Of a stretch of DNA of 59,033 nucleotides, positions 4,886 to 59,033 are shown one piece after another. Position numbers and translations under genes: made by a program. The stretch is taken from NCBI GenBank assembly GCA_036172245.1, contig JAYWIR010000103.1:124001-183033 (forward strand). Direction: 5' to 3'. Source of the stretch: Raillietiella orientalis (taxonomy: Eukaryota). The notes below the pieces were generated by a model. That model saw only the letters and a program-made list of their open reading frames with translations, was not told the DNA's origin and made no database searches. How positions within the stretch are numbered: position 1 is the first letter of the stretch; every line of letters begins with the position of its first letter.

Positions 4886-6129
4886 ATCAGGCATTGCTGC
4901 CTAATCCTCCACCCACACCACGCACAAGCACCAACGGAAATGGAACTCAGGAGCAACGAAAAGACACGTCCGCTCGACGCTCCGGAATCTCCAGGACTGG
5001 GACCTTTTTAAGGAATCGGTCCGCGAGTTCTGTGAGCAGTTCCCCCTGGATCGCCTGCCCCCCGGATTCGGCGAGGGTGCTCGCAACCATCGGGCCTATT
5101 TACAGGCTCGTAGGTACGAGAGAACCCCTAATGTCCGTCGCCTGGCCGAGTACCGCGCCGGGGCCGAACGCCAAGCCTGGCAATCCGGGTCGGCCAGCTT
5201 GCTGGACGACCAGGGCCGGGAATGTTCGTCCCCGGCGTCGGTACGGCATCTCGTGCGGAGTTTCTATTCCTCCCTTTACGCCAGGGAGCCCCCGGATCGA
5301 AACGCCTCTCGGCGCTTGCTTCCGGATGGCGCCCCGGCAATAAGGGAGGAGGAGATGGAAAGCCTCGACGAGCCTTTTACCACCGGCGAAATTCTCGCCG
5401 GTATCAAAAGGCTCAAGAAACGTAAAGCTCCAGGGGAAGACGGCTTGCCCGCGGAGTTCTTTCAGAGCTTCGCGGAAGAGCTGGCACCCCTGCTGCTTAA
5501 GTTGATCAGGCTGATCCGAGACGAAGGCGATGTTCCCGCCTCGTTTCGGTCAGCCAGAGTGAGGCTCCTTCCGAAAGGGGGAGACCTCAGGAATTTAAAG
5601 AACTGGCGTCCGATCACAATCGTGAATACGGACGCCAAGTTGATAGCAGGGCTATGGGCTTCGCGTCTGGGGCAGGTGGCAGAATCCGTAATTAGCCCGG
5701 AGCAGACTTATGCTGTTCCCGGTCGAAGTATGGATGCCAACCTCTTCTTCGCAAGCACATGGGTGCACCTGCAGAGAAGAGAAAAGAAAGGGATAGGGAA
5801 AGTCGGCAACCCAACATTGGGTCCGTTAGCCGGGCTGGGAAGGGACCCCCGAGCGGAGAAAGGGGCCCTAGCGCTCGCAGTCGATCTCCACAAGGCGTTG
5901 GATTTTCACCCGGATTTCGCCGGGGCGTTTATTGTAAAATAAACTTTTACAAAGACGTGCGGTGGCTGGACCATTGCTCCAGCCACGCACGAAGAAACAC
6001 AGAGCCTGCCGGGTCACCGGTTTGCAGACCGGTACGGTCCACCACGGCAGCAGGGGGAAGGGGGAAAAACAAAAAACAAAACAAAAAAGAAAAGAAAAGT
6101 TGGGAGGGTAAGGGAAGGGATCACAGTTG

Positions 6130-9100
6130 CTAGTGGGGCCGTTGCATCCTTTGTAGGATGGCGGCAAGCTCCTTCTGTATTTCTGGATCCAGGTGGGGCC
6201 ATCGGGACGCCCTCCTCAAAAACTGGGAGGCTGGCTGGATGGCACCCTGGTCGCGTAGTCCTCCCGTAGCCTTGCTCAAAGCGGTGACGTTCCCGCGTAG
6301 GCAGCACAAAGCTGCTAACGAGGCCGCTGGCCGACGGGCTTCGGGAACGAAGATGGCTTTCAGGGCGTCCCTGGGGTCGCAGCAGGGGATTCCGATGGCC
6401 GCGGCAAAGCGAAACCAAAGGGGCCGAAGGGCAACACAATCCACTAGCAGGTGGGGGAGGGACTCCCGTTCCCCACACCTGACGCAATTGGGGTCCACCG
6501 CTCCCCAGGTCCAGTGGTGTCGGCGGGCGTTGCAGGGGAGTCCCCAGTGCTGCAACAGGAGAGCCGACTCCTGCCATTTTAAGGGGAGGGCGGAAGTGTT
6601 CATGAGCACCGGGGGCCAATTCAGATGTTCAATGGGAACATCGAGCAGCGCGCCCCAGCGCAGAAGTCCATTGGGAGGCGTACTCGGGGTCGCAGCGTCT
6701 GTTAACTGGCCCGTCTTCCACTCTCCTATCTTCTCCTTTCCGGAGATTGTTACTGTAACCACCCACTTCGCCGCAACATCGCTGTCCAGATCTTCCATCA
6801 GGGAGGGCAGCGCAGCAGCGAGGGGGGTTCTTCCTGCCCACGCTCTCTTCTTTGGATCCTCCAGGATCTCGCGGAGCGTGCAACTTCTGTAACCCCCAAA
6901 CAGGAACCTTCGTTCCTGTTGGGAGCGTTGCATGCCGAACCGTCCCCACGTTCGAACGGTTTCCTGCAACCAGGCACTACCGTTAAACGGGCGACAGGTG
7001 AGCAATCCTGGGTTTTTCCGATACAGCGCAGCCACCCTCCGTAGCTGGAGTCCGCATCGGTTGACGCGGCGACGGAGTGCAAGAAACGACGTCAGTCCCG
7101 TCTTACCGGTGGCTTGCTGGAGAAGGAAACGTGCAGGGACGCACCAACAGGTGCACCACAACTCTGGAACGAGTGCCGACAAGCGGAACTGGAGCTGAAG
7201 CTCCAGCCGCTCCAGCGTCAGGAGGCCCAGACCACCATCCCGACGAGGAGCGCACAAGTCCTTTAAGCGGACTCGGGCCCTCCCGTTGCCCCAAAGGGCG
7301 ATACGGAGGAGGTCCTTTGTCCGCTTTTTAATCCTCTCTGTGGGGAAGCAAACTAAAAGCAGGGGGCGGAGGAGAGGAGCCGCGAACGTGTTCCAAACCG
7401 CGGCCCGTTCAGGCAGGAAAAACCTGCCGCCTCGGAACGGGCCGATCGCCGTCTCTACTTTTTGAAGGCAGCCGGACCACGCTTCCGCAGGGGAGTAGTC
7501 CCCCAACGGCACACGAAGGTACTTCAAATACCTCACCGTGGGGATCCCCAAACGGACCCAGTCCTGCTGCCATGTCCACGCCGCACAAAGTTGCATCACG
7601 GACGACTTCGTCCTGTTCACCGTAAGTCCGGTTCCCCGATGCAGCAGGTCGAAGAACTCCTCGACCGCCGTAGCCGGGGTGGACATAGGGAGCAGCAGCA
7701 GAAGGTCGTCCGCGTATGCTGAAACGGCCGGCGTACCGGCACAATCGTGCGGCAGGTGCGCCAGAGTTCCCCTGTACGCTCTCAGTACCAACTCAAAGTA
7801 GGTACTGAAGAGCAAGGGGCTCAGGCTGTCTCCCTGCCGGATCCCACGCCGCACCGGCACGCCGTGCACCGTCTGCCCGCTGAAAGCAACATTGATGAGC
7901 GCGTCGCGCCAGCAGGAGCGCAGATAGGTCACTAATGAGGCCGGGAAGCCCAAGCGTTCCAAAAGCTCCAGAAGGAGATTCTGGTCGACGCAATCGAATG
8001 CTTTCTGCAAGTCGATTGCGACCGTAAGGGCTCCCTCCCCCACCCGACCATCCAACCCCTTGCCGGCGCACGCACCGGAATTCCGGCTGCGCACCAAGCT
8101 CCTTTCATGTTGGAGCTCTAGCCAGGTGGAAGCGTGGAACAGGTTCGCCTCCATGCTTCGCCCGGGAACAGCATATGTCTGTTCCGGGCTGATGAAGATG
8201 TTGGCAACCCGTCCCAGACGCTCTGCCCAAACCTTGGCCACCAACTTGGCGTCCGCATTCACTATTGTGATGGGACGCCAGTTGTTCATGCTCCTCAGAT
8301 CTCCTCCCTTAGGGAGGAGCCGCACCTTTGCCGAACCAAACGAGGCGGGAACGTAACCTGTTTCTCGTATCAGCAAGGTGAATTGCTGTACCAGGGGGGT
8401 AAGCTCAGCCGCGAAAGTTTGAAAAAACTCCGCGGGCAGGCCGTCCTCCCCTGGAGTTTTTCGCCTCTTGAGCCTTCCGATGGCCGAGAGGATCTCGTCC
8501 ATCGTGAAAGGCTCGTCGAGGGTCTTGCTCTGCTCCTCCCCGATCGCTGGAGTGCCTTCCGGAAGCAGGAGTCGTGAGACGTTCCTCTCCGGAGGTGCCC
8601 TGGCATACAGGGAGGAGTAGTAACTCCGCAGCAGGCCGCGCATTTGGGCAGGTGCCGAGTGCTCCTGGCCCTGATCGTCCAGTAAGCTGGCCGATCCGGA
8701 CTGCCAGGCTTGCCTCAAGGCTCCCGCTTTGTATTCCGCCAGCCTGCGGATGTCGGGGGTCCTGGCGTAACGACAGGCCTGCAGGTAGGCTCGTTCGTTA
8801 CGGACCCCGGTCCCAAAACCCGTAGGTAGGCGGTGCAGAGGAAACTGGTCGCAGAACTCCTGGACCGACCGCTTGAAGCGGTCCCAATCCTGGAGTGTCC
8901 GCAGCCTGAAGCTCCGTATGAACTTGCGGAGATGTTCCGCCGCGTCCGGGAGCTTCAGCCAGTCCCCTGGGAGACGCCACGCTGACGAGGGGGGACCCCT
9001 GTCGCGCGGATGGATCTCGAGGACTAGCGGGCGATGGTCGGACAGCTCGCACGGTAACCTGCCGCGGCTGCCCACGCGAGGGCACAGGTGCTCGTCAAGA

Positions 9101-9699
9101 AACACGTGGTCAATGCTGTCTTCCATCCCCGGTGCACTGGCCAACAGATTACAGGTGTGCACCGCCATGCACACCTCGTTGACCAGGTCACGCTCGGGAT
9201 TCTGCTCATCTGGTTTCAGGCGAACGTTGAAATCGCCTGCAACCAGATGGGCATTCCACACGCCTGCTTCGGTCAGCCAGTCTCGCCGGAGGGCAAGGAA
9301 AAACTCTTTCCTCGCCCTCCTGTTCATCAGGTCCTTGCCGCTCGGTGCGTACACGTTCGTGACGATCAGATCGATCGAGTCGGACCACCTGAGAGTCAGC
9401 TGGCCGACACGACCGTGATCGTCGAACCGCACGCCCCGAGCCGCGGCCTCGACGGCTGGCCAAAGCAGGTAGGCGACACCGCAACTTTTCGCTCTCCCAC
9501 ACCTGTACCATAGCCGCCCTCCGGAGATCCGTTCGATCTCTTGCGCTTGTTCTGCAGAGATCACGTGGATCTCCTGCAGCAGCGCAAGGTCGTAGGACTC
9601 CAGAAGGGCAAATATGTCTCGTCTCCTGCCGGCGTCTGTCATGCCGTTCACGTTCCAAACGGCGATGCGCAGACGACGGCAGGAGGAGATTCCCGGCAT
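6130..9699 (-). CDS. Open ORF2 of B1, 1189 aa: APE endonuclease, reverse transcriptase, C-terminal zinc finger
   Basis: EN motifs WNVNG, LQE, NVYAP, GDFN, IDHVF, SDH. RT motifs PGEDG, NWRPI, DLQKAFD, RQGDSLSP, YADD. Finger CVRCGERESLPHLLVDC. YLG is changed to YLR. Confidence 0.96.
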   Translation of the reverse strand: MPGISSCRRLRIAVWNVNGMTDAGRRRDIFALLESYDLALLQEIHVISAEQAQEIERISGGRLWYRCGRAKSCGVAYLLWPAVEAAARGVRFDDHGRVGQLTLRWSDSIDLIVTNVYAPSGKDLMNRRARKEFFLALRRDWLTEAGVWNAHLVAGDFNVRLKPDEQNPERDLVNEVCMAVHTCNLLASAPGMEDSIDHVFLDEHLCPRVGSRGRLPCELSDHRPLVLEIHPRDRGPPSSAWRLPGDWLKLPDAAEHLRKFIRSFRLRTLQDWDRFKRSVQEFCDQFPLHRLPTGFGTGVRNERAYLQACRYARTPDIRRLAEYKAGALRQAWQSGSASLLDDQGQEHSAPAQMRGLLRSYYSSLYARAPPERNVSRLLLPEGTPAIGEEQSKTLDEPFTMDEILSAIGRLKRRKTPGEDGLPAEFFQTFAAELTPLVQQFTLLIRETGYVPASFGSAKVRLLPKGGDLRSMNNWRPITIVNADAKLVAKVWAERLGRVANIFISPEQTYAVPGRSMEANLFHASTWLELQHERSLVRSRNSGACAGKGLDGRVGEGALTVAIDLQKAFDCVDQNLLLELLERLGFPASLVTYLRSCWRDALINVAFSGQTVHGVPVRRGIRQGDSLSPLLFSTYFELVLRAYRGTLAHLPHDCAGTPAVSAYADDLLLLLPMSTPATAVEEFFDLLHRGTGLTVNRTKSSVMQLCAAWTWQQDWVRLGIPTVRYLKYLRVPLGDYSPAEAWSGCLQKVETAIGPFRGGRFFLPERAAVWNTFAAPLLRPLLLVCFPTERIKKRTKDLLRIALWGNGRARVRLKDLCAPRRDGGLGLLTLERLELQLQFRLSALVPELWCTCWCVPARFLLQQATGKTGLTSFLALRRRVNRCGLQLRRVAALYRKNPGLLTCRPFNGSAWLQETVRTWGRFGMQRSQQERRFLFGGYRSCTLREILEDPKKRAWAGRTPLAAALPSLMEDLDSDVAAKWVVTVTISGKEKIGEWKTGQLTDAATPSTPPNGLLRWGALLDVPIEHLNWPPVLMNTSALPLKWQESALLLQHWGLPCNARRHHWTWGAVDPNCVRCGERESLPHLLVDCVALRPLWFRFAAAIGIPCCDPRDALKAIFVPEARRPAASLAALCCLRGNVTALSKATGGLRDQGAIQPASQFLRRASRWPHLDPEIQKELAAILQRMQRPH

Positions 9700-9713
9700 T
9701 ACTGCTGGGAAGA

Positions 9714-11375
9714 TTAAGGTGTGGGGGAGCCCTCCTCTTGCGAGGCGGGCGGGATGTCCATGGGGGTTTCGGCCTTCTCAGGCACCTGAGGCACCTGTTC
9801 GGCCTCCACCCCCTCCATCCCCTCCGTGTCCGTGCGTGGGAGTCTCTCGGGCGACGGGTCCCGAGAGTTTCCCACGCTCATGGCACCCTCGCTTGCGGAA
9901 GCCATCTCTTCCCCTTCGACGGGGGAGACGAGCTTCCTTGGCTTTGTGGACTTACGTCCAGCCTTCTTGCGCGGTGCCGTAGAAACGGAGGCTGCGGTTC
10001 CGGCCTCCACCTCGGGGTCGGAAGTGGGGAACATCTGAGGGGAGGCCGGACGCCTTACGGCCTTCTTGCCAGCCTTGGAGGGTTCTGGCTGCAAAGAGGC
10101 TGCCAGCTCCTCCGCGGCTCGCGCGAAGGCTACGTCATCGATGGTGGTGTCGATAACGGACGCCGCCGCCGGTTCGCTCCCCTCGCTGTTGTCTGTGTCA
10201 ACAGAGGGGAGTTCGTCGGTAGCGGCGAGTTCGTTCCGGCAGCGTTCGGCAACATCGAGAACGCGTTCGACAACGACGCTGCACTCTTTAATTATGGCGC
10301 GACCCTGCTCTTTCTTCTTCTATTGGTAGGCGATTTTCTTTTCCATCCTCCTCTCCTTCTTTGATTTTTTGGCTGTTGCCACTTGCCACTCAGTCTCCTG
10401 GCCGGCTCCCTCAACTTTTTCCGCGTTGGTCGCCGGGGTCACGGGTGCGGCCTGGGTCTTGGGCGCGGGTGGCACAGCCTTCGCGGCAGCTTTCGCCTCC
10501 AGTCTTTTCTGCAGAAGCCGGGCGCGTTTTTTAAGGTTTCTCTTGGAAACCACCCGCACTGCTGCTTTTGGGCACACCTCCCTCGTGTGGCCCATTGTGC
10601 CGCATACTTGGCACTGCACATTGGGACACCTCTTTTTGAGGTGGCCCGACGTATTGCAGAAGCCACAGTATTTCGGCTTCCCCCCATACCAGAGGTCGAC
10701 GGTTTCGCCTTCGACCACCAGTTTGTGGGGAAGAGTGCAGCCCTCCCGAACGGTCACGCGCGCAGCAGTGAGGCCGTGTTGCAGCCCCGTGTAGTCCTCG
10801 AAAGGACTAACTTTCGTCCACTGCGCGTGGACCGTTCCAAACTGTTCCAAAGCGGCGCGAACCTGTTCTTTGCGCATTCGCGCGGTCACGCCTAACAGGT
10901 GGACCACCATGCTGCGGTCCGCCGTATTGGGGAGAAGCCTGCGCGTCCCCATCACAACGGTGGTTTTAAGCAGTCGTTGGGCCAGCTCTGCATGTTTGCA
11001 GATGACCTCAACGTACTGACCCCCGCTGCGGAAGGTCATAGCGCTGAGCTCCTCCTCTTTCACATCGAGAGCGCGCATGCCCTTCGAGAAGGCGCGCGCG
11101 CTCTCTAAAGAATATAAATTGCCTACCTTGTAGAACAATGAGGGGTTGTACCCCTCCTCTACATAGGCCGACAATTCCGCCGCGGCTGCAGGCGATGGCG
11201 CCGACACACCGGCGCTTCACGCCCGCGCTGCAGCAGGGACCGATCCTGTGGGGGCGCATGCCCCCACCTCCATCTCCTCCGGGGGCGACGTTGCTGCCGC
11301 CCCCTGGCTCTCCATCGCCTCTGGGGGCGGCGTTGCCGCTGCCCCCTGGCCATTCCTGGTGCTCGCGTCAGGCAT
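9714..11375 (-). pseudogene. ORF1 of B1 (CCHC knuckles) with two in-frame nonsense codons
   Basis: Collinear with the intact B2 ORF1. TGG>TGA at ~11217 and a TAG at ~10320. Knuckles CGFCNTSGHLKKRC and CQVCGTMGHTREVC. Confidence 0.9.
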
Positions 11376-13449
11376 TGCTGCCTGATCGACCACCGAACCA
11401 CACGACGCTTCCACTGGGAGAGACTTCCTGGCACGAGGAGCACCGAGAAAACACGTCCACCCTAGAGCGCACAAGGCGTTCGACTGTGTAGCCCAGAAAC
11501 TTCTCTTGGAGCTCCTGGGTCGCATGAGCTTTCCACCCTCCCTGATCAACTACCTGCGCTCCTGCTGGCGCCATGCCATAATTTCCGTCTTTTTCAGCAG
11601 TCAGAAGGTGCATGGCGTACCGGTGCGGCGGGGCATCAGGCAGGGAGATAGCCTGAGTCCCCTGCTCTTCAGCACCTACTTTGAGTTGGTGCAGACTTCT
11701 TCGAGCTGCTCAGCCGTGGGACCGGACTGCAGGTCAACAGGGCGAAGTCGTCGGTGGTGCCAGTAGGTGCGGCGTGGGCAGGGCAGCAGGACTGGGTCCG
11801 TCTGGGGATCCCCACGGCGAGGTGCTTCAAGTACCTTGGTGTGCCGTTGGGGGACTACTCCCCTGCGGAAGCGTGGTCCAGCTGCCTCCAAAAAATCGAG
11901 ACGGCGATCGGCCCGTTCCTGGAAGGCAAGTTTCACTTGCCGGAACGGGCCGCGGTTTGGAACGCCTTCGCGGCCCCCATCCTCCGCCCCTTGCTTTTTG
12001 TTTGCTTCGCCCCCGTGGAATCAAAAAAGCGGACTAAGGACCTTCTCCGCATAGCTCTTTGGGGCAAGGGGAGGCCCCGAGTCCCACTGAAGGACTTGTG
12101 CGCTCCGCGTCGGGACGGCGGTCTTGGCCTCCTGACGCTGGAGCGCGTGGAGAAGCAGCTGCGGTGGCGAACCCTCGCCATCGCAGCGAAGATGTGGAGC
12201 ACCCCTTGGTGCACTCCGGCCCGCCTCCTGGCCAGCCGTGTGTCCCGGTGCGATGGACTCGCTTCTTTTCTTCTGAGCCGTGGCCGGAAGATGCGAAGAT
12301 GCGGCCTACTGCTCGGGCGCATGGCAACATTGGCCAAGGAGAACAGCTGGATGGTTTGCTGCCCCGCCAACTCCCCCGCCTGGCTGGAGGAGAATATTGG
12401 AACGTGGGCAGTAGTTAACCAGAGAAGCCACGAGACGTGGAATCGTCTCCGATGCAGCCCCTACGCCCGCTGCACGCTGCGGAATCTCCTGGAGAGTCCA
12501 GCAAGATGCACGTGGGCAGAGACGACCTGCCTAGCTACGGCGCTGCACTTCCTAAGGAGGGCACTTCACCGCACTCGGACGCCAAGGTGGCAAGTCTCCT
12601 GCTGCATCGAGGGACGCGAGAAGTTGATCAGCGGCTGGATAACAGGAGAACTGGCCGACGCCACGACCCCGAGGGTCCAGCCGCGAGGATTATTAAGATG
12701 GGGCGAGCTGCTCGCCATCCCCAGGGATGAGCTGAAGTGGCCCCCGGTAATAAAGGAATCCAGGATCCTGCCCCTCAAGTGGCAAGATTCGGCGTTGGTT
12801 TTGTTGCACTGGGGTCTACCCTGCAACGCGCGCCGCTTCTACTGGACGAGGGGAGCTGTGGATCCTGCGTGTGCCATGTGGGGGGAGCGGGAGTCGCTTC
12901 CCCACCTTATTGTGGATTGTGCTGCCCTCCGACCCCTTTGGGAACGGTTCGGGACGACCCTCGGGCTCCCTACGGGCAGCAACCCCAGAGACGTTCTTCG
13001 GCCCCTCCTCGTGAAGGACGCACTGCAGCCAGCCGCAGCCATCGCAGCCTTGTGCTGCGTCTGTGGCTTCGTGGGGGCATGGAGCGACGCCAACAACGAA
13101 GGAGTGGGTCCACAGGCGAGGGATGTCATCCCGTATGCCAAACGCTTCTTGCGAAGAGCTGCCGGATGGCGCCAACTGGGGAATATGCAGACTGACCTCG
13201 AGGGCTTCGTTCGACGGATGGGCCCTCCCCACAGCGACCAGTGATCCCTTCCCTGCCCTCCAGCTTCTTTTTGTTTGTTTCTTTTTATTTTACTTTTTGT
13301 CTTATCCCCATCCCCCTTCGCTGTCGGGGAGTGCCACGCCGGGCTGCGTCCCGGTGTCCCGACAGGTCCTGTGTTTACGGCCGTGGTGGGGCCTTGTACC
13401 ACGCATGGAAAGTTTATTAATAAACGCCCCGGGCGTACCCGGGTGATAA

Positions 13450-16183
13450 CGCCGATTCCCCGGAACAGACGTTGCACAGGGAACTGTTTGCAGAACTCCC
13501 GGACCGAGTCCTTAAATTGGTCCAAATCCGCGAGACTCTGGAGGCTGACGCCTCGCAGGAATTCGCGAAGATGTTCTTTCGCTCCTGACAGGCGCGTCCA
13601 GTCCCCTGGCATACGCCAATCCCTGGATGGCGGTCCCTTGTTGCGCGGGCGCATCTCGAAAACTAACCGGGAATGGTCCGACAGCGTCGATCCAAGTGTC
13701 CCTCGTTTTCCGACCCGTGTGCACAGGTCTTCGTCGAGGAAGACGTGGTCCACGCTGCTGACCATCCCGCTTATTTCTGTCAACAAGTTGCGCGCGCGCA
13801 TGGCGGCGCACAACTCGTTGATCGCGTTACCCTGTGCTCCGGGCTGATCTGAGAGCAGACCGACGTTGAAATCCCCTGCTATCAGATGCGCCTTTCGCAC
13901 GTCCGCGTCCACCAGCCATTCGCGCTTCAAGGTTTCCAGTAACGCGTTGCGCTGCTGGTATCCCTGTTTACCGCTAGGAGCGTACACATTGGTGACGATG
14001 AGGTCGATCGAATCGGACCATCTGAGAATCAGTTGGCCGATCCGTCCGTCGTCCCCAAAGCGCACTCACTTCACGGCCGCGTTAATGGCTGGCTTTAGGA
14101 AGAACGCGACCCCACAAGTGTTGCGGGCGCCGCATCGCCAGTACAACCGCCCTCCCGCAATCGTTTCGATCTCCTGGGCGTCTTTTGCGGTGATCACGTG
14201 GATCTCCTGCAAAAGTACCAGGTCGAAATCTCGCAAGGTGGCGGCTGTATCTCGTCTGTTTCCGTCGTCGCGCAGCCCGTTAACATTCCAACTGGCCGCG
14301 CGGATCCGACGGCGACAGGCGAGTCCAGGTGTTATTCCTGGGAACCTGGCGGTGGAGCTCCCGCCACCTTTTGGGGCGGGTCGCTGGACGGGGTTGGCGT
14401 CTTGCCCACCAACTCCCCATCCTTCTTTCGTGCCGACGTCTCCGGCTGCCCGTGCGAAGGGGGTGTTGTTCGTACCTGTTGGCCCACATCCATTGGTGCG
14501 GGTGGTTCAGGTTCGGCGGTTTCAGAGAGCATTGCTGACCCCTGGTTACCCTCCTCCATTGGAGTCGCCTCCTCGTCGGCTTCCGCACGTGGGTGATGCC
14601 CGACTTGGGCTCCCACGCTGCCATCCACTGGTTCTTCCACCATTGCATCCCCCTCGCGCGGAGGCGGAATGCACCTTCGGGGTTTCTGGGATTTTCGCCC
14701 CGCTTTCCTTGGTGGTGCTTCCGCAGAGGAGGATGCACTTCCGGCCTCCCGGTCCGACTCACCTGCGGGGGCCACTTTAGCCGCTGCCGGCCTACGCAAC
14801 CCCTTTCGCGAAGGGTTCTCGCGTTCGGCAAGCGTTGCCGCAAGCTCCTCGGCGGCCTTCTCGAAGGCTGCCTCCTTGGTTTCGGCGATTTTGTCGTCCG
14901 GCTGACCCTCTTCGCAAACGGGGGGTGGGTTTTCGCGCGCATTCTTCGCGGCAGGAAGATCGATCGAAGCCGTATTGCCTCCGGTGGTGTCGGCGGGAAC
15001 GTCAATGCGCTACAGCGTAACCGTGCATTCTCGGAGAGTTTCTACGCGCGACACGGATTGAGCTTTTGTTCCGGCCGCCGCCTTCTCTCCTTTCTTCGGG
15101 ACATGCTTGTCCTTTTTTTCTTTTTTGGCTTTGACTAGCTGCCAGCCCTGTTCACCCTCTGCGGTTTCGGGAAGGTTTTTCTCCGATGCCGCGCTTGGAG
15201 CTTGGGTTATTGGCACCTTTTCTCGGCCAGTTTCACGGTTTTCTAATTTTTCTTTTCCCGCGCGTTTCGCTTGCGCCTTTTTGGCGGCCGAGGAAATTGG
15301 GGTGGGGCGTTTAGGGCACACGCGACGGACGTGTCCCTTCTCCCCGCACAAGTAGCATACGATGTTCGGGCACCTCTTACGGATGTGTCCGACCGCATCG
15401 CAGTAGCCGCAATACCGTGGCTTGCCAGCATACCAGAGGTCTACTGGTTCTCCCGCGACCTCAAGTTTGTGGGGTAGCTTCGCTTCGTTTTTTGGGGTTA
15501 CGCGTGCCGCAGGAGGCCCCGAAGTGGCGTCCGTAGCCCTCAAAGATTGTGGGCTTCGGCCACAGCGCGTGTACGTCCCCGTACTTACTTAATTCTGCTT
15601 TTACGGCAGTGCGCGTCATGCGCTTGGATATTCCTGTCAAGTGGACCACTACCGAGTGGTCCATTGACACCGGGAAGATCTTACGGCCGTCCATGATCAG
15701 CGGGGTATTTATAAGGCGATCGGCTAGGCTGATGCTCTTGCACACCAGCTCAACCCGCTGCGCCCCGCTGAGCACGCACAGACCGTCCAGATCTTCCTCA
15801 CGGACATTAGCATTTTGTAGCGCTCTGCTGAAAGAGCGCGCTGTGTTTCCTTCAAACAAAGGGCCTACCTTGTATACAAGCGATGGCTTGTATTCAGAGG
15901 ACCGATAGGCGGCTTCCTCGGCCATGGCCTCCGCACTGGGGGCGGCGACCATTTCACTCCAAGTCTTCGCCGGCTGCGAAGACGTTCCAGGGACTATTGC
16001 CCCCATAGATGTAGGTCCTGTGGTAGGACTTGCCTCCCCCACAACCACATCCATCGCGGTGTCCTCTGGCACGGCTGCCATCGGACACCGACGACCCACA
16101 CTTAACACCTGACTACACTAAAAAAACTCCGGTTGCTTCCCAGACAGGCGTTGGCGGAGCGACCAAAAGACACGTCCACCCAC
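13450..16183 (-). mobile_element. Non-LTR retrotransposon C, 5' half (frameshifted ORF1 16081-14332; EN domain 14332-13450); inserted antisense into F
   Basis: 5' end gtgggtGGACGTGTCTTTTGG. Knuckles CGYCDAVGHIRKRC and CYLCGEKGHVRRVC. EN motifs WNVNG, NVYAP, GDFN, SDH. Cut by the 3' end of D at RLFRGIG. Confidence 0.9.
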
Positions 16184-32940: not shown

Positions 32941-32959
32941 CATCTGCCAAACCATCGTC

Positions 32960-34870: not shown

Positions 34871-34939
34871 ATGACTACAAGCCTGTACTCAGGTATACGA
34901 TTTCACCTCACGACAGAACATCTTTGGCAGCCAATTCGG

Positions 34940-47990: not shown

Positions 47991-48749
47991 GCAGTCCATG
48001 AGAAGGATGTCTCTTTCTCCCCTCACCGGTAAAAAAGGGCATTCACACTTTCAAGTGTCCAGTGAGTGAGACACGCCTTGCACGGGAGATTCAACGGAAT
48101 GATAAACACATTTAATGTATTGATCTAAGAGAGTGGTTAATATTGAAAACAAGGACTTTGTAAATGTTTTGTGTGGCACAAGTCTTTGGTAGCTGGTTTT
48201 CAAAGCTTGCCAAAGGAGACAAAGATACAAATGTTTCTAAATTATCCTAGTTACCGTTCGTAATCACTTACAAAAATGGGAAGGATTCAAAGTAAAATTA
48301 AGAACTGGAGACCATGAACATTTTCCAGGTTTATACGATGTGCAATGTCATTTTACCCCTAAAAGTTGAATTCATTGGATCCTGAACAATATTTAGCTCT
48401 GAATGTAGCATTAATATTTAATATTGATTCTTGTCCTCACGTAAGCTGGGTCTTGGGTGATACAAAGAATTCCATCTGACAAATGTTTGAATAAGTCCAA
48501 CTTATGGGGAACCTTTGACATAATATGTATTTATGAGTTACTGATACTCTGAAAAATTCTAGAAGCTTATTCCTTAACAGTCACAGTTGTTGGGTTTGGT
48601 TATGTGATTCGAAATGTGAACTTCGATGTATTCTGAAAGTGCTTAGAATAACGCCATGAATAAAAGTATCTCCACCTCTTCCAAGGTGTGGACATAAATC
48701 AGTCAAATTAAATCAAAGCACGAGTTAAAAATTGTATCAAACTTCTAAA

Positions 48750-49620: not shown

Positions 49621-51669
49621 TTGCCACACGGATACGCCGGGACGTTTATTCAAACTCTCCGCATCGTCACGAAAACATGTGGTACAAGGCTCTACTAACA
49701 GCAAATATTTAGCACGACCTGCCGGGACACCGGGACGCAAACGCGTGTGACTCTACTTTGCAGTAAAAGGAGTAAGGAGAAAACGCACAAAAAAATATAA
49801 CAAACAAAATAAAGAAAAAAAGTTTATAGGTTCGAGAAGAGATCACTGACCACTAAGAGGAGGGTCCATCCTTTGCAGGATGCCCTCGAGGTCTTTCTTT
49901 TTTCCACCCAGCTGGGGCCATCCGGTAGCTCTGTGAAGGTAGCGAACAGCATACGGGATGACGTCCCTCTCGTTGGCGTCTTCATCTTTGGCTTCACTCC
50001 AGGCCGTTACAATTCCACGGATGCAGCAAAGTGCTGCCAGGGCTGCGGCTGGCTGCAGGGCGTCTTGCACGAAAGGAAGGCGGTAAACGTCTCTGGGGTT
50101 GCCGCCAGCCGGTATCCCAAGGGTCGTCCCGAAACATTCCCAGAGGGGCCGGAGGGCAGGACTGTCCACTATCAGGTAAGAGAAGCGCTCTTCCTCCACG
50201 GACCTGGCACACCCAGGGATTACTCTTCTCCTCGTCCAGTGAAAGCAGAGGACGTTGCAAAGTAGATCACAATGCAACAACAGGAGCGCGGACTCTTGCC
50301 ACTTGTGGGGGACGATCCTGGAACCATTCAATAGCAGGGTAACTTCAGTCATCCATCGCGATGCCAAGCAGCTCGCCCCATCTACAAAGTCCACGCGGAA
50401 GGAAACTCGCGGTAGTGGCATCCGCAGTTCTTCCATAGTCCACAAGCTTATCTTCTTCTCCCTGCTCCGATCCGATAGGAGACTTGAAACTTTATCGCCA
50501 GCGTCTGACGGGAGCTATCCATAGGAAGGGAAGCTCCGGAGCTCAAGGAGTGGTCTCTGCCGAAGTGCGACTGGCAGAAAATGCTGGCAGTTCCAGTAAT
50601 TACCTCCATAGTAATTCAGATTCGCCCACGTGATAACGGATTCCTCCAGCCAGGCGGAAGAGTAGGCGCGCTGCAAACCATCCAGCCGTTGTATTTCAGC
50701 GTTTCCATGCTTCCAGAGAGAAGACCACATCTTCTCATCTTCCGGACGTGGCACAGAAGATAAGGCGAAACTCCCTGCGTCCTGGAAACACGGTTGTCCA
50801 GAAATCGGGCCAAAACGTACCATAGGGTGCTTCAAAACTTCGCTGAGATGGCCAAGGTGCGCCGTCGCAGTAGCATCTCCAAGCGCTCCAACGTCAGGAG
50901 GCCAAGACCTCTGTCCCGACGCGGAGAGCACAAGTCCTTCAGAGACACACTAGGCCACCCGCTGTCCCAGCGGGCGATGCAGAGTATGTCCTTAGTCCTC
51001 TTCTTCAACTGGCAAACAAAAGCAGGGAACCGAGAATAAAGGCCGCGAACGGGTTCTAAACCGAGTCCCGTTACGGAAGAAGGAATTTGCCTTCCAGGAA
51101 GGGGCCGATCTCCAGCTCTCCTTTTTCGAGACTACCTGACCAGGCTTCTGCGAGACAGAAGCCACCCAACGGGAGGCCCAGGTATTCCAGGTACCTGGAC
51201 GTGGAAATCACAAGCGGAACCAGTCAGACCGTCGGAAGCACGTCGCACCAACCACTACCACCAACGACTTCGCCTTGTTCACCCGCAGTCCTGTTCCACG
51301 GCTTAGCAGAACGAACATGTCCGCGACAGCGCATGCATGGGCAGACATGGTCAACATCAGCAGAAGATCGTCAGCGTAATCTGCTACGGCGGGCGCACCG
51401 GGGCACGAGCTCGGCAAGGCAGCCAAAGTCACCCTGTATGCTCTTAGCATCGACTCAAAGTAGGCGCTGAAGAGCAGGGGACTGAGGCTATCACCATACC
51501 GTATGGACCGCCGCTCCACCAGGCCGTACGTGGTTTGTCCGCTGAAGGAGACGGTAAATATTGCATGGCGCCAGCAGGAGCGCAGCTATGTGATAAAGAT
51601 GTGTGGGATGACCATGCCACCTAGGACCTCCAGCAGGAGATCGTCGTCCACGCAGTCGAACGCCTTGCG
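49621..51669 (-). mobile_element. Decayed retrotransposon K (D-like), from RT KAFDC to 3' end; antisense in M and host of B2
   Basis: RKAFDCVDDDLL, RYGDSLSP, YADD, ...LQRMDPPLSGQ. 3' end AATAAACGTCCCGGCGTATCCGTGTGGCAA. Confidence 0.9.
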
Positions 51670-51690
51670 TGCTCCAGGGTGGACGTGTTT
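51652..51690 (+). promoter_or_regulatory. Putative composite Inr + DPE core promoter of B2 (equivalents at A1 4998/4971, B1 11485/11458, C 16204/16177, A2 57859/57886)
   Basis: gcAgtc (A at 51654, in host K) and GGACGTG starting at 51681, which is +28, the canonical Inr-DPE spacing. Confidence 0.65.
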
Positions 51691-54600
51691 TCTCGGTGCT
51701 CCTCGTGCCAGGAAGTCTCCCCCAGTGCAAGCGTCGTGAAGTTCGGTGGTCGATCAGGCAGCGATGCCTGACGCGACCACCAGGGATGGCCAGAAGGCAG
51801 CGGCAAGGCCGCCCCCAGAGGCAATAGAGAGCCAGGGGGCGGCGGCAACGTCGCCCCCAGAGGCGATGGAGGTGGGGGCATCCGCCCCCACAGAATCGGT
51901 CCCCGCTGCAGCGCGGGCGTGGAGCGCAGTTGTGTCGGCGCCATCGCCTGCAGCCACGGCGGAATTGTCGGCCTATGTAGAGGAGGGGTACAACCCCTCA
52001 TTGTTCTACAAGGTAGGCAATTTATATTCTTTAGAGAGCGCGCGCGCCTTCTCCAAGGGTATGCGCGCTCTCGATGTAAAAGAGGAGGAGCTCAGCGCTA
52101 TGACCATCCGCAGCGGGGGTCAGTACGTTGAGGTCATCTGCAAACAAGCAGAGCTGGCCCAACGACTGCTTGAAATGCCCGTGGTCATGGGGACGCGCAG
52201 GCTCCTCCCTATTACGGCGGACCGCAGCATGGTCGTCCACCTGTTAGGTGTTACCGCGCGGATGCGCAAGGAACAGGTTCGCGCCGCGTTGGAGGAATAC
52301 GGAACAGTCCACGCGCAGTGGACGAAAGTTAGTTCTTTCGAGGACTACACGGGGCTGCAGCACGGCCTCACTGCTGCGCGCGTGACCGTTCGGGAGGGCT
52401 GCACTGTTCCCCACAAACTGGTGGTCGAAGGCGAAACCGTCGACCTCTGGTATGTAGGGAAGCCGAAATACTGTGGCTTCTGCAATACGTCGGGCCACCT
52501 CAAAAACAGGTGTCCTAATGTGCAGTGCCAAGTATGCGGAACCATGGGACACATCAAAGAGGTGTGCCCTAAAGCAGCAGTGCGGGTGGTTTCCAAGAGA
52601 AACCTTAGAAAACGCGCCCGGCTTCTGCAGAAAAGGCTGGCGGCGAAAGCTGCCGCGAAGGCTGTGCCACCCGAGCCTAAGGCCCAGACCGCACCCGAGA
52701 CCCCGACGAACAACGCCCAACAAGTCGAGGGAACAAGCCAGGAGCCTGGGTGGCAGGTGGTTACGGCCAAAAAATCAAAGAAGGAGAGGAGGATGGAGAA
52801 AAAGCCCGCGTACCGCCAGAAAAAACAGCAGGCAAGAGAGCATATAAAAGAATGCAGCGTTGTCGTCAAGCGTACTCCCGATCGCTGCGAAAAAGAACTC
52901 GCCGCGACCGACGACAACCCCTCTGTTGACTCTGTCAAGAGCGAGGGGAGCGAGCCGGCGGCGGCGTCCGTCATCGACACCACCATCGATGGCGTAGCCT
53001 TCGCGCGAGCCGGGGAGGAGCTGGCAGCCTCGTTGCAGCCAGAACCCTCTAAGGCTGGCAAGAAGGCCGTAAAGCGTCCGGCCTCCCCTCAGGAGTCACC
53101 CACTTCCGACCCCGAGATGGAGGCCGGAAGCGCAGCCTCCGTTTCCACAGCACCGCGCAAGAAGGCTGGACGTAAGTCCACAAAGCCAAGGAAGCTCGTC
53201 TCCCCCGACGAAGGGGAAGAGATGGCTTCCGCAAGCGAAGGTGCCATGAGCGTGGGAAACTCTCGGGACCCGTCGCCCGAGAGACTCCCACGCACGGGCA
53301 CGGAGGGGATGGAGGGGGTGGAGGACGAACAGGTGCCTCAGGTGCCTGAGAAGGCCGAAACCCCCATGGACATCCCGCCCGCCTCGCAAGAGACGGGCTC
53401 CCCCACACCTTAATCTTCCCAGCAGTAATGCCGGGAATCTCCTCCTGCCGTCGTCTGCCCATCGCCGTTTGGAACGTGAACGGCATGACAGACACCGGCA
53501 GGAGACGAGACATGGCCGCCCTTCTGGAGTCCTACGACCTTGCGCTGCTGCAGGAGATCCACGTGATCTCTGGAGTACAAGCGCAAGAGATCGAACGGAT
53601 CTCCGGAGGGCGGCTATGGTACAGGTGTGGGAGAGCGAAAAGTTGCGGTGTCGCCTACCTGCTTCGGCCAGCCTTCAAAGCCGCGGCTCGGGGCGTGCGG
53701 TTCGACGATCACGGTCGTGTCGGCCAGCTGACTCTCAGGTGGTCCGACTCGATCGATCTGATCGTCACGAACGTGTACGCTCCGAGCGGCGCGAACCTGA
53801 TGACCAGGAGTGCGAGGAAAGAGTTTTTCGTTGCCCTTCGGCGAGACTGGCTGACCGAAGCAGGCGTGCGGAATGCCTACCTGGTTGCAGGCGATTTCAA
53901 AGTTCGCCTGAAACCAGAAGGGTAGAATCCCGAGCGTGACCTGGTCAACGAAATGTGCATGGCGGTGCACACCTGGAATTTGTTGGCCAGTGCACTGGGG
54001 ATGGAAGACAGCATTGAGCACGTGTTTCTTGACCAGCACCTGTGCCCTCGCGAGGGCAGGCGCGGCAAGTTACCGTGCGAGCTGTCCGACCATCGCCCGC
54101 TAGTCATCGAGATCCATCCGCGCAACAGGGGCCCCCCTCGTCAGCGTGTCGTCTCCCAGGGAACTGGCTGAAGCTCCCGGACGCGGCGGAACATCTCCGC
54201 ACGTTCATACGGAGCTTCAGGCTGCGGACACTCCAGGATTGGGACCGCTTCAAGCGTTCGGTCCAGGAGTTCTGCGACCAGTTTCCTCTGCACCGCCTAC
54301 CTACGGGTTTTGGGACTGGGGTCCGTAACGAACGAGCCTACCTGTAGGCCCGTCGTTACGCCAGGACCTCCGACATCCGTAGGCTGGCGGATTACAAAGC
54401 GGGAGCCTAGAGGCAAGCCTGGCAGTCCGGACTGGCCAGTTTGCGGGACGATCAGGACCAAGAGCACTCGGCACCCGCCCAAATCCGCGGCCTGCTGCGG
54501 AGTTACTACTTCTCCCTGTATGCCAGGGCACCTCCAGAGAGGAACGTCTCACGTCTCCTGCTTGCGGAAGGCTCTCCAGCGATCGGGGAGGAGCAGAGAA

Positions 54601-54888
54601 AGACCCTCGACGAGCCTTTCACGATGGACGAGATCCTCTCGGCCATCGGAAAGTTGAAGAGTCTCCAGGCTCCAGGGGAGGACGGCCTGCCCGCGGAGTT
54701 TTACCAAACTTTTGCGTCTAAACTTACCCCCCTGGTACAGCAAATCAGCTTGCTGATACGCGAAACAGGTGACGTTCCCGCCTCGTTTCCTTCGGCAAAG
54801 GTGCGACTCCTCCCTCAGGGAGGAGACCTGAGGAGCATGAACAACTGGCGTCCCATGACAATAGTGAATGCGGACGCCAAGTTGCTGG
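51670..54888 (+). mobile_element. Retrotransposon B2, 5' part (ORF2 53428-54888 with stops and frameshifts), interrupted by L
   Basis: Closely similar to B1 through the 5' UTR, ORF1 and EN. Ends at NADAKLL. Confidence 0.94.
51764..53413 (+). CDS. Intact ORF1 of B2 (two CCHC knuckles)
   Basis: MPDATTRD...; CGFCNTSGHLKNRC and CQVCGTMGHIKEVC; uninterrupted frame. Confidence 0.92.
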   Translation: MPDATTRDGQKAAARPPPEAIESQGAAATSPPEAMEVGASAPTESVPAAARAWSAVVSAPSPAATAELSAYVEEGYNPSLFYKVGNLYSLESARAFSKGMRALDVKEEELSAMTIRSGGQYVEVICKQAELAQRLLEMPVVMGTRRLLPITADRSMVVHLLGVTARMRKEQVRAALEEYGTVHAQWTKVSSFEDYTGLQHGLTAARVTVREGCTVPHKLVVEGETVDLWYVGKPKYCGFCNTSGHLKNRCPNVQCQVCGTMGHIKEVCPKAAVRVVSKRNLRKRARLLQKRLAAKAAAKAVPPEPKAQTAPETPTNNAQQVEGTSQEPGWQVVTAKKSKKERRMEKKPAYRQKKQQAREHIKECSVVVKRTPDRCEKELAATDDNPSVDSVKSEGSEPAAASVIDTTIDGVAFARAGEELAASLQPEPSKAGKKAVKRPASPQESPTSDPEMEAGSAASVSTAPRKKAGRKSTKPRKLVSPDEGEEMASASEGAMSVGNSRDPSPERLPRTGTEGMEGVEDEQVPQVPEKAETPMDIPPASQETGSPTP

Positions 54889-57880
54889 TTGCCACCCGGT
54901 AACGCCGGGGCGTTTATTAAAAATTCTCTATGATTCGTGGTACGAAGCCCCACTACGGCCAACTCAGCTGGACCTGCCTGGTCGCCGGTACGCTGACCGG
55001 CGCGACTCTCCTCGGCAGCGGAAGGGGGTGGGAGAAAAAAAAAAAAGAAAAATAAAACATAAAAACAAAAAGATTCTGGAGGGTTGGGGAGGGATCACTG
55101 ACCACTCGGAGGAGGGTCCATCCTTCGCAGGATGCCCTCGAGGTCCGTCCGTATAATTCCCAGGTGGGGCCATCTGGTCACAATCCGCAGGTAGCGGACT
55201 GAAAGTACAACGGCATCCCTGTCGTGGCTCGGTCTTCTGACGTTGCTCCAGCACGTAAGAATCCCGCGTACGCAGCTAAGTGCAGCCAGAGTAGCGGCTG
55301 GACGCAGGGCATCATGCACGAACAGAACCCGTAAAACGTCTCTGGGCTGGCTGCCCTCCTGGATCCGTATGGAGGCACGAAGAAGTTCCCACAGGGGTCG
55401 GAGGGCAGCACGATCAACAAGGAGGTGGGGGAGCGTTTCCCGTTCCCCAAACCTGATGCAGGTAGGATCTACTCGACCCCTGGTCCAGTGGTGGCGGCGT
55501 GCGTTGCATGGTAGGCCCCAATGCAACAACAGAAGCGCCGACTCCTGCCACTTCAGGGGTAGGATCCTAGAACCAATTAATACCGGGGGCCACTTTAGGT
55601 CATCCGGCTGGATGCCGAGTAGCTCACCCCATCTCTGAAGTCCTCTCGGCTGGACACTAGGGGTACTGGCGTCCGCCAGTTCACCCGTGGACAAGACGCT
55701 GATCAACTTCTCCTTGCCTGCGATGCGGCAGGAGACTTGCCACCTACTCTTGCGGGTGCTGGAGAGCGCCCTCCTCAGGAAGGGCCTCGCCGTAGCTACG
55801 GGGGTTTCTCTGCCCACGTGCTTCTCGCGGGACACTGGAGTATCTTCCGCAGAGTGCAGCGAAAATAGGCGCCGCGTCCCAGGCAGTTCCACATCTCCCC
55901 GTTCTTCTGGTTTATCTTCGCCCACGTGCCAGCTGTTTCCTCCAGCCATGCGGAGGAGTTGGCGGGGCTGCATACCATCCAGCCGTATTTCTTAGCCAGA
56001 GTTGCCATTCGTCCCAGGAGAAGTCCGCATCTCTTGATCTTCCTGCGACGGCACAGAAGATAGGACGCGAGACCCTCCGTCCCGGATACACGGCTGGCAA
56101 GGAGTCGGGCCGGAACGCACCAAGGGGTGCTCCATAACTTCGCTGCGATGGCGAGGGTTCGGAAGCGCAGCTGAATCTTTACTCGCTCCATCGTGAAGAG
56201 GCCGAGACCGCCATCCCGACGTGGAGCACACAAGTCCTTCAACGGGACTCGGGGCCTCCCTCTTCCCCAAAGGGCAATTCTCAGGAGGTCCTTCGTCCGT
56301 TTTTTCAACTCTCTGGGGACCGAACAAACAAAAGCTGGGGGCGGAGGATAGAAGCCGCGAACGCGTTCCATACCGCGGCCCGTTCCGGAAGGAGAAACTT
56401 GTCTTCCATGAACGGGCCGATCGCCGTTTCCACTTTTTGGAGGCAGCCGGACCACGCTTCCGCAGGGGAGTAGTCCCCCAACGGCACAGCAAGGTACTTC
56501 AAGCACCTCGCCGTGCGGATCCCCAAGCGGACCCAGTCCTGCTGCCCTGTCCACGTCGCTCCAACTGGCAACACTGACGACTTCGCCCTGTTAACCTGTA
56601 ATCCAACCCCACGGTTAAGCAGGTGGAACAAATCTCCGACCGTCTTCGCCGGGGTGAACATAGGTAAGAGGAGCAGAAGATCGTCGGCATACGCCGCTAC
56701 GGCTGGCGTGCCGGGGCACGAGCTCGGCAAGGGGGCCAAAGTCACCCTGTACGCTCTCAGCACCAACTCAAAGTAGGTGCTAAAGAGCAGGGGACTGAGG
56801 CTGTCGCCCTGCCGTATGCCCCGCCGTACCGGCACGCCGTACGCCATTTGACCTCTGATTGAGATATTGATCAGCGCGCTGCGCCAGCAAGAGCGCAGGT
56901 GGGTCAGTAGGAAGGGAGGGAAGCCCATGCGTCCCAGGAGATCAAGCAGGAGATCCTGGTCCACGCAGTCAAACGCTTTATGCAGATCGACTGCGATCGC
57001 TAGGGCTCCCTTACCCACCTGGGAGTCCTGTCCCTGCCCGGCTGACGCCCCCAAAGCGGGGCTGCCAATCCTTCTCTCTTCCTTTTCTTCATTACTCTGC
57101 ACATGAAACCATGTGCTCGCGAAGAACAGGTTGGCCTCCATACTTCGCCCGGGAACAGCGTAAGTCTGCTCCGGGCTAATTATGGAATTGGCTACCTGTC
57201 CCAGACGCGAAGCCCACAGTCCGTCGATCAACTTGGCGTCCGTGTTCACAATTGTGATCGGACGGCAGTTGCTGAGTTTCCTGAGGTCTCCTCCTTTCGG
57301 AAGGAGCCTCACTCTGGCTGACCGAAACGAGGCGGGTACATTGCCTTCATCTCGGATCAGCCTTGTCAACTCAAGCACCAGGGGTGCCAACTCTGCCGCG
57401 AAGCATTGAAAAAACTCCGCAGGCAGGCCGTCCTCCCCTAATGCTTTCCGCCTCTTGAGCCTACTGATACCGGCGAGAATTTCGCCGGTGGTAAAAGGCT
57501 CGTCGAGGCTTTCTTTCTCCTCCTCCTATTGCCGGGGCACCGTTCGGAAGCAACCGCCGAGAGGCATCTTGGTCCGGGGGCGCCCTGGCGTAAAGGGAGG
57601 AATAATAACGCCGCAGGAGGTTCCGTATTCTAGCCAAGGCCGAGTGCTCCCGGCCCTATCGTCCAGCAAGCTGGCCGATCCGGATTGCCAGGCTTGACGT
57701 TTGGCCCCGGCTCGGTACTCTGCCAGGCGACGGACATTGGGGGTCCTCGCGTAACGACGGGCATACAAGTACGCTCGTTAATTACGGATCCCATCTCCAA
57801 ATCCCCGGGGCAGGAGGTGCAAGGGGAACTCCTCGCAAAACTCGCGGACCGAGGCCCCAGTCAGCGTGATTGCAGAGCGT
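54889..57880 (-). mobile_element. Retrotransposon L (D/G-like), linker-RT-zinc finger-3' UTR, frameshifted; antisense in B2 and host of A2
   Basis: DLHKAFD, RQGDSLSP and YADD in ORF 56305-57390. C-terminus ...RMDPPPSGQ at 55095. 3' end AATAAACGCCCCGGCGTTACCGGGTGGCAA. Confidence 0.92.
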
Positions 57881-59033
57881 CGAGCGGACGTGTCTTTTCG
57901 TTGCTCCTGAGTTTCATTTCCGTTGGTGCTTGTGCTTGGTGTGGGTGGAGGATTAGGCAGCAATGCCTGATACCACCACCGGTGAGGATCCGGGGGCGAT
58001 GACCTCATTGCCCCCGGAGCAGATGGAGGTGGGAGCTCCCGCATCAGTGGAGGCTCCCGCCAGCACAGATGCGCCCCCGGCCCTACCCAGGGCTTGGAAC
58101 GCCGTGGCTGCGGCACCTACGCCAGCGGCTATGGCGGAAATGAGCGCTTACCTGGAGGAGGGGTATAATTCACCCCTTCTATATAAGGTAGGCGGTTTAT
58201 ATTCTCCCGAGAACGCGCGCGGCTTTCCGCAGGCGATGCGCGTTCTCGGTGTACAAAAAGAGGAGCTTCTGGCTATGTCCGTCGGAAGCGGGGGTCAATT
58301 CGTGGAAGTTATCTGCAAGGAGGCAACTCTTGCGCAGAGACTTCTGCGAACCCCCGTAATTATGGGCAGCCGGAGGCTTCTCCCCATTACTGAAGACCGG
58401 TCGGTGATCATTCACCTGACCGGTATCACGTTCCGGATGACGAAGAAGGCCGCACGGAACGAATTAGAAAAATTTGCAACTGTCAACGCGCTGTGTGGAA
58501 AGCCCACTCCTTTTGTCGATTACGACGGGGTGCTTGGCGGCTTGGGTGCAGCGCGAGTGACGGTTCGCGAGGGATGTGAGTTTCCCCACAAACTCACCGT
58601 CAACGTTGAATCCGTTGACGTGTGGTACGTGGGGAAACCCAAGTTTTGCGGCTGCTGCAGCAGCTTCGGTCACCTTAAAATGAGGTGTCCGAGCGTGCAG
58701 TGCCAGCATTGCAAACAAGCGGGCACACCCGTCTGGTGTGCCCCCATAACACCTTCCGCGTCGTGTCCGCGAAAAACGCGAGAAAGCGAGCGGCAAAAAA
58801 GAGTAAGTAGCTGGCAGCTCGTGCTGCTGCTAAGAAGATCACATCCGCCACCAAGGCGAAGGTCAGCCCCGAGACCCCGGCGAAAAACGCCGAAAAGATC
58901 GAGGGCGAGGGTCAAGAGCCAGGGTGGCAGAAGGTCGATCCCAAGAAAAACTCCCATAAGAAGGGAAAGAACGTGGCGAAACGGAGCGAAACCGCTCTGC
59001 GCCGCGAAAAAATTAAAAGCTGCTGCGTCGTTG
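57881..59033 (+). mobile_element. Retrotransposon A2, 5' UTR and ORF1 (ATG 57963, frameshift ~58720), runs off the window
   Basis: Near-identical to the reverse complement of A1 4976-3830. Confidence 0.94.

Follow-up and report, generated by a model that had tools for sequence, protein, structure and literature searches.

Young L1-like retrotransposons of Raillietiella orientalis probably insert antisense at specific sites in the ORF2 of sister lineages

Two copies of an L1-like long interspersed nuclear element (LINE), here called family A, are joined to two related elements, D and L, at the same base of the second open reading frame (ORF2) of these hosts, and in both cases in antisense orientation, in a 59,033-nucleotide stretch of the Raillietiella orientalis genome (assembly GCA_036172245.1, contig JAYWIR010000103.1, positions 124,001 to 183,033 of the forward strand). 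This stretch, numbered 1-59033, is referred to below as the window, and all copies and junctions were mapped within it; single letters designate individual element copies, except for the families A (A1 and A2) and B (B1 and B2). The reading that we favour, and to which we assign a probability of about 0.7, is that young L1-like lineages insert antisense and site-specifically, as independent events, into the ORF2 of sister lineages.

A1 (1-4976, minus strand) has a complete 5' end, an 82-nt leader, a 554-residue ORF1 with zinc knuckles and an ORF2 with an endonuclease of the apurinic/apyrimidinic endonuclease (APE) type and a reverse transcriptase (RT); A2 (57881-59033, plus strand) has the same 5' end as A1 and leaves the right edge of the window inside ORF1. 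The 5' end of A1 is base 4976, and D begins at 4977 with ACG CTC CGG AAT CTC CAG GAC TGG GAC (TLRNLQDWD); the 5' end of A2 is base 57881, and L begins at 57880, on the minus strand, with ACG CTC TGC AAT CAC GCT GAC TGG (TLCNHADW). In both cases the strand of A is opposite to that of the host, element and host standing head to head. The first bases of A1 and A2 are identical (CGAGCGGACGTGTCTTTTCG), and the window contains exactly two instances of an 18-mer that spans the junction, one at 4965-4982 (minus strand) and one at 57875-57892 (plus strand), with none expected in shuffled sequence. A preliminary description of the stretch had proposed that family A inserts antisense at one site, T-L-x-N-L-x-D-W, in the linker between the endonuclease (EN) and RT domains of D and L; this is confirmed to the base, and the two junction strings quoted there are both present as written. 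Also as described there, an uninterrupted version of the site, then placed at about 29243-29270, is found in a third element, G (29242-29274, plus strand), as GGC GTC ACC CTC CAG AAT CTC GCT GAC TGG GAG (GVTLQNLADWE), where the equivalent of both A junctions lies between 29247 and 29248. The site corresponds to approximately residue 290 of ORF2 in the numbering of B1; since the Pfam match for the B1 endonuclease spans residues 40-248 and that for the reverse transcriptase residues 489-734, it falls in the EN-RT linker.

The 5' end of A matches the start common to B1, B2 and E (GGACGTGT.TTT..CG.TGCTCC, five matches in the window), and this homology indicates that both A copies are complete at their 5' ends; their position on the host side thus reflects the target and not truncation. 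Were insertion random within a host some 5.6 kb long, the chance of a second copy hitting this base in this orientation would be about 1 in 11,000 by our arithmetic. Independent copies with one position and one orientation are expected of a target-specific LINE, and this is what was found for two of two A copies, a very small sample.

Two A copies at one site could be the product of a single event, and A1 together with D was aligned against the reverse complement of L together with A2. A1 and A2 are identical at 1107 of 1153 positions (96.0%), and the D and L flanks at 746 of 912 (81.8%), a step with a Fisher p of 2e-26. The drop in identity begins at the junction, an 11-bp indel follows about 30 bases further on, and in bins of 100 bases identity is 92-99% inside A and 70-90% outside. 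Over the RT segment common to D, L and G, identity is 83.9% for D-L, 81.2% for D-G and 84.1% for L-G, and the tree of the three is star-like (support for D+L, 0.27); with these near-equal distances, the empty G is as close to the occupied hosts D and L as these are to one another. Their surroundings also differ: B1 splits D and not L, the 3' end of D lies in E and that of L in B2. The preliminary description had considered that A1 and A2 with their flanks might form one duplicated block; we looked for such a block and rejected it on the contrast of 96.0% with 81.8% and on the break at the junction. Block duplication, or retrotransposition of a composite of D with A, would give equal divergence and shared surroundings, and neither is seen. 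The identity step and the different contexts show that the two events were independent; A1 and A2 are most likely fairly recent full-length insertions, made by target-primed reverse transcription, into older copies of the D/L/G lineage.

The target sequences themselves point in the same direction. Both occupied hosts read ACGCTC at the A site, and the six unoccupied copies that span the site differ from this (ACCCTC in G, AGCCTC in E, GCCATT in M, AGGATG in A1, and AGGCTG in both B1 and B2). Variants of this kind, here in small numbers, fit the recognition of a specific sequence, both at the A site and at the B site described next, and would in addition keep A and B from inserting into their own copies.

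The idea of a second family with its own address within the same group of victims was borne out as well: family B, a sister of A, occupies the RT motif KAFD of both D and K, again in antisense. B1 (5904-11469, minus strand) is a full-length copy of 5566 bp in which both frames are open (the ORF2 product has 1215 residues), and may be an active element judging from its sequence. Both halves of its host D are in the window, the left one (4977-5903, plus strand) running from the first residue of T-L-R-N-L-Q-D-W, at about residue 290 of ORF2, to KAFD, and the right one (11470-13449, plus strand) from KAFD to the 3' end of D (...CCCGGGTGATAA). B1 is flanked within KAFD by a 15-bp target duplication, identical at 13 of 15 positions: CACAAGGCGTTGGAT at 5889-5903, the last 15 bases of the left part of D, and CACAAGGCGTTCGAC at 11470-11484. 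B2 (51670-54888, plus strand) is the second copy of the family, and its 5' end abuts K (49621-51669, minus strand), which starts beside it at CGCAAGGCGTTCGAC, the very KAFD base that adjoins B1 in D. A step in identity is seen here too, with 932 of the first 1000 nucleotides of B2 matching B1 and 166 of 222 positions matching in the hosts. The two occupied hosts read CAAGGCGTTCGAC at the B site, and the four unoccupied copies that span it (A1, B1, L and F) vary as AAAGC(A/G/T)TT(C/T)GA(C/T). A 220-bp antisense piece of RT, through which the BLAST alignment of B1 and B2 ran, was considered as part of the B 5' end and rejected, as it is the continuation of host D after the 15-bp duplication and only about 75% identical between the two loci. 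A and B share 83-86% nucleotide identity in the RT segment compared but use different sites, which implies that the address changed over a short evolutionary distance.

A further site, with the motif PGFG, lies about 75 bp downstream of the A site in the linker. One and the same PGFG position harbours the 3' end of D in E (13440-13460), the 5' end of E in F (16178-16199) and both ends of H in G. E (13450-16184, minus strand) is the host of D and is interrupted by the 3' end of D immediately after ...GGGGAATCGGCG, and its own 5' end adjoins F at the same site. H (29344-30028, minus strand) is a 5'-truncated copy of 685 bp, antisense in G, with a perfect 12-bp duplication (12/12), CCTGATTCGGGG, at 29332-29343 and 30029-30040. 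The target duplications expected of an APE-type LINE were thus found for B1 and H, the 3' ends of A1 and A2 being beyond the window, and they indicate that these elements insert into each other by target-primed reverse transcription.

Every copy was mapped against B1 and each junction was read, which gave two nesting chains. In the left arm of the window the chain is F<E<D<(A1, B1): F (plus strand) was entered by E (minus), E by D (plus), and D by both A1 and B1 (minus). In the right arm, an ORF1 remnant (plus) was entered by K (minus), K by B2 (plus), B2 by L (minus) and L by A2 (plus). Of the element-to-element junctions mapped, 9 of 11 are antisense. Two sites are represented by a single case each, that of L in B2, which the antisense 3' end of L cuts at about ORF2 residue 513, and that of K, whose 3' end is antisense within the ORF1 remnant. 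L (54889-57880, minus strand), the host of A2, is unbroken from T-L-C-N-H-A-D-W, at about residue 290, to its 3' end (...CCGGGTGGCAA); the right part of D is 82.7% identical to it over 707 nt.

Taken at its most specific, the favoured reading would proceed as follows. The machinery of A would recognise a specific sequence in the ORF2 linker of D/L-type elements and nick the sense strand of the host some 12-17 bases downstream of the observed junction; the 3' end so freed would prime copying of the A RNA from its 3' end, and a second nick, between GTC and ACG, would fix the 5' junction, the insertion splitting the ORF2 of the victim. Sister lineages do likewise at other fixed sites, namely KAFD in the RT for B and PGFG in the linker for D, E and H, and the nest is their joint product. 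By extension from B1 and H, A presumably makes a target duplication too, and the site rule presumably holds for the whole A family. By analogy with Tx1L, R1 and TRAS (Kojima, 2015; PMC4494074), site specificity would be set by the endonuclease.

Several observations weigh against this reading, or limit how far it can be taken. That the endonuclease sets the specificity is a proposal with one indirect hint, the difference in sequence between occupied and unoccupied sites. The site in G, which is the nearest relative of D and L, is empty though only one of its first six bases differs, and copies as few as those in the window cannot define a recognition sequence. L, though of the D lineage, occupies another site in its host, so that addresses are not strictly fixed within a lineage. 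The antisense bias taken by itself is weak (p = 0.065 for 9 of 11 junctions and p = 0.06 for five of five addresses), and the two remaining junctions are sense, with F adjoining I and N adjoining G, each by its 3' end. The A copies of the window number two, both run past its ends, and their 3' junctions lie outside it; neither an A 3' junction, nor a target duplication of A, nor the upstream half of D or L is within it. A family-wide address for A thus rests on two of two copies and on the parallel behaviour of the relatives.

Among the alternatives to independent, protein-guided insertion, the main one, which we consider unlikely, is that homing depends on nucleic-acid homology: A transcripts, or the ends of the cDNA, would carry a few bases of antisense flank from the parental host and pair with the same place in another host, a route that has been proposed for co-transcribed R1/R2 elements, and the address would be inherited from the location of the parent. 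The five addresses are all antisense, and different addresses in A and B, at 83-86% identity, are easier to inherit by location than to obtain by protein change; moreover, co-transcription with the target can strengthen target-specific integration (Kojima, 2015; PMC4494074). The junctions speak otherwise. Identity between the A1 and A2 loci falls within about six bases of the 5' junction, with no carried-over flank visible, the 3' ends stop at a hairpin, GTG and 2-5 A, without a host-derived tail, and the primer ends (..TTGGAT, ..TTCGGGG, ..ATCGGCG and ..TTGCTGG) show no pairing to the element 3' end. A very improbable alternative is that an old block of A plus host was duplicated in inverted form, or that a D-type element with A was retrotransposed whole, the A parts being later homogenised by gene conversion from a younger A. 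The A copies do stand in inverted orientation to each other, one at either end of the window, and the order is similar in both arms (A, D/L-type host, B, host). However, A has diverged by 4.0% and the flank by 18.2%, with an abrupt change at the junction, the tracts of gene conversion would need to have ended on one identical base in the two copies, D and L are, as said, no closer mutually than to the empty G, they end in different hosts, and the kinds of junction differ (residue 595 of D meets the 3' end of B1, but the 3' end of L meets residue 513 of B2).

Equally improbable in our estimate is a reversal of roles, in which D and L would be copies cut short at a recurrent 5' stop and attached to base 1 of an A element already in place, or a chimera arising by an inversion akin to twin priming. 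In twin-priming products of L1 the upstream segment is inverted and adjoins a downstream segment cut at its 5' side, a head-to-head topology like that of A and its hosts, and recurrent breakpoints exist in the window, as a sense-strand joint at about ORF2 residue 706 recurs in two other copies. Against this, A and the host overlap across the entire RT region and are only about 73-74% identical there, which rules out a single RNA as the source of both segments; the hosts are older than A, and one and the same host base would have had to be linked twice, in separate events, to base 1 of an intact A. Every junction is accounted for by plain nesting, F<E<D<(A1, B1) and K<B2<L<A2. As for mere coincidence, with A preferring the repeat cluster as a regional hot spot and meeting the same base twice by chance, the window consists almost wholly of related LINEs and LINE-in-LINE insertions are expected under any rule; set against the odds of about 1 in 11,000 already given for the same base and orientation, and against the recurrence of the pattern for B (two of two) and for the PGFG site (three junctions), this is the explanation to which we give the least credit of all.

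A bolder proposition can be entertained, tentatively and with rather less than even odds: that the sister LINEs form a guild of mutual hyperparasites with heritable, base-exact ORF2 addresses (T-L-x-N, PGFG and KAFD), always antisense, each insertion killing a competitor, and with addresses that have shifted between lineages about 85% identical. Were this true, the guild would offer a natural series of re-targeted APE-type endonucleases, or else a new guiding step.

As to the type of element involved, Pfam Exo_endo_phos and RVT_1 match both A1 and B1, as befits an APE-type ORF2, and a zf-RVT match at the C-terminus of the B1 ORF2 product is weak. The closest solved protein is human LINE-1 ORF2p (E = 5e-45), and a protein search with the B1 ORF2 product returned only 15 distant matches, at 21-30% identity, none of them named as Tx1, Keno, Kibi or Koshi; in a protein atlas, RT clusters without names or taxa were found. 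The 554-residue ORF1 product of A1 has CCHC-type zinc knuckles on reading, and A ORF1 had no match in the protein search. The seven element 3' ends seen, all in the window (5904-5962, 13390-13449, 19107-19165, 28867-28926, 29344-29401, 49621-49680 and 54889-54948), share a hairpin motif, AATAAA(C)GCCCCGG-loop-CCGGGTG, and stop about 20 bases after AATAAA: a 5-bp hairpin is followed by GTG and by 2-5 A only, and none of the seven has the poly(A) or simple-repeat tail typical of L1 proper. Such a tail looks "stringent" and suggests an RT that recognises a specific 3' structure instead of a poly(A) tail. The hairpin is invariant in all seven copies and so yields no evidence from covariation; Rfam found nothing in the window.

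Individual copies show further features. Both A copies are damaged. A1 leaves the left edge of the window about 0.56 kb short of its expected 3' end, with its length judged against B1, and its ORF2 is split over two frames near 1932-2025; in A2, an indel of one base near 58722 sets ORF1 apart from that of A1. In the N-terminal coding part of ORF1, B carries two tandem 42-bp units (11268-11350 in B1 and 51789-51871 in B2) that A is without. D (11690-11696) and M (24530-24536) each contain an internal same-strand joint, the right side of which starts at about ORF2 residue 706 (..FFE/FFD..); M loses about 790 bp at this joint, and D, in its right part, 127 bp at about 11692, including the YADD catalytic motif. 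The shared position may mark a place where deletions repeatedly end or one where 5' truncation recurs. At the two sense junctions, the 3' end of F (19160-19175) is followed by I on the same strand, starting near the beginning of the ORF1 of I, and the 3' end of N (28920-28930) is followed by G on the same strand, from the endonuclease DFN motif (about residue 182) onwards. A 490-bp RT segment stands in direct repeat at 24860-25349 and 27419-27906, the copies being 2.56 kb apart and 90% identical, and is a local duplication within the older, more decayed middle of the cluster.

Base composition varies along the window. G+C content is about 60% at 1-31 kb and 50-59 kb and 33-47% at about 32-50 kb, and the GC-rich parts are almost wholly made of related non-LTR (long terminal repeat) retrotransposons. 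Between the two LINE arms lies an AT-rich stretch of 17 kb (32000-49500), within which the segment at 42-45 kb has a CpG observed/expected ratio of 0.17 and an excess of TpG/CpA, the LINEs having ratios of about 0.9-1.0. Repeat-induced point mutation was rejected as the cause of the AT-rich stretch, as the dinucleotide indices do not fit. A 584-residue open frame at 41994-43748 (minus strand) matched no Pfam family above threshold and found no relative in the protein search, and one contig from a DNA run (X1) matches 43786-44099 without a difference. The segment at 42-45 kb looks like methylated, unique host DNA, perhaps a long exon.

Searches outside the window added little. A 22-base motif from the 5' end common to A and B was found at two loci in a scan of metagenomes, in bacterial-looking DNA without ORF2 homology, and at four loci in prokaryote genomes, likewise without ORF2 homology, all of which we attribute to chance; viral contigs had no match. 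The run X1 holds 0.07 of the sampled words of the window, no RNA run being listed, and its contigs on 40000-59033 are some 200-370 bases long and mostly 85-95% alike; no joint or loose end at 57880/57881 appears among those listed (6 of 183 loose ends), and contigs so fragmented speak neither for nor against the junction.

How the arrangement compares with known systems is best seen from the classical target-specific elements. R1/R2 and TRAS/SART have a base-exact target, a fixed orientation and a short, fixed duplication, and their targets are multicopy host genes or telomeric repeats. The elements of the window resemble them in base-exact target, fixed orientation and short target duplication and are unlike them in that the target is the frame of another retrotransposon, destroyed by the insertion. 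The Tx1 group offers a second comparison. Tx1L is described in the DNA transposon Tx1D, the crocodilian Tx1-Mar in Mariner-N4_AMi, and Tx1-8_Crp and Tx1-4_AMi in LTR retrotransposons; specificity in the group is attributed mainly to the endonuclease, and some members insert opposite to the orientation of their target (Kojima, 2015; PMC4494074). The likeness lies in APE-type LINEs with a fixed position in another transposon family and in related lineages with different targets (PMC4494074). The window differs from the Tx1 group in its targets, ORF2 coding sites of sister LINEs and not DNA transposons, LTR elements, RNA genes or microsatellites, and in that several lineages parasitise one another in a chain; the likeness drawn here is one of features.

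Nested clusters of non-LTR elements have also been described. Two studies report Zepp and ZeppL, L1 LINEs of green algae, in centromeric clusters of Coccomyxa and Chlamydomonas (Blanc, 2012, PMC3446292; Craig, 2021, PMC8226300), and Zepp nests as tandem arrays of mostly 5'-truncated 3' ends (PMC8226300). The likeness to the window lies in the targeting of existing copies and in nested GC-rich clusters (61% GC for Zepp and about 60% for the cluster of the window); nested insertion within the same group, forming a local cluster, was found here in the two nesting chains. Tandem 5'-truncated arrays of the Zepp type were not found in the window, 9 of 11 junctions being antisense and A1, A2, B1, B2 and E keeping their 5' ends. 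Judged by secondary descriptions of Zepp, the members in the window further differ in being mostly long or full-length and in having sites that are base-exact and lineage-specific, and the window differs from the algal genomes, as portrayed there, in the 17-kb AT-rich stretch with a 3-kb CpG-poor segment between its cluster arms. Cnl1 of Cryptococcus is described as a single non-LTR family that prefers its own copies and forms nested, subtelomeric arrays in tandem orientation (Gusa, 2023; PMC9942834). It shares with the window, on that description, the self-nesting arrays and differs from it in that the insertions in the window are antisense and made by several lineages with separate addresses; tandem self-insertion of the Cnl1 type was not found, A and B being antisense and in hosts of a different lineage. 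For antisense homing of LINEs into the ORF2 of their relatives we found no precedent in the open-access papers searched, though one may exist in print and similar rules may have been reported for Zepp.

What differs from these known systems is that the targets are coding sites in the ORF2 of sister elements, that each lineage has a site of its own and that the orientation is almost always antisense. Should the site rule fail genome-wide, an ordinary nested repeat cluster with a striking coincidence would remain. Target-specific LINEs serve as models of retrotransposon site choice and as starting points for programmable gene insertion, and close lineages with different base-exact sites would give a compact natural comparison for the study of APE-type specificity, one open to direct testing in that B1 looks intact. 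The arrangement would also show competition among transposons, each insertion disrupting the ORF2 of a rival, and would supply a simple growth rule for nested LINE clusters such as those at some algal centromeres.

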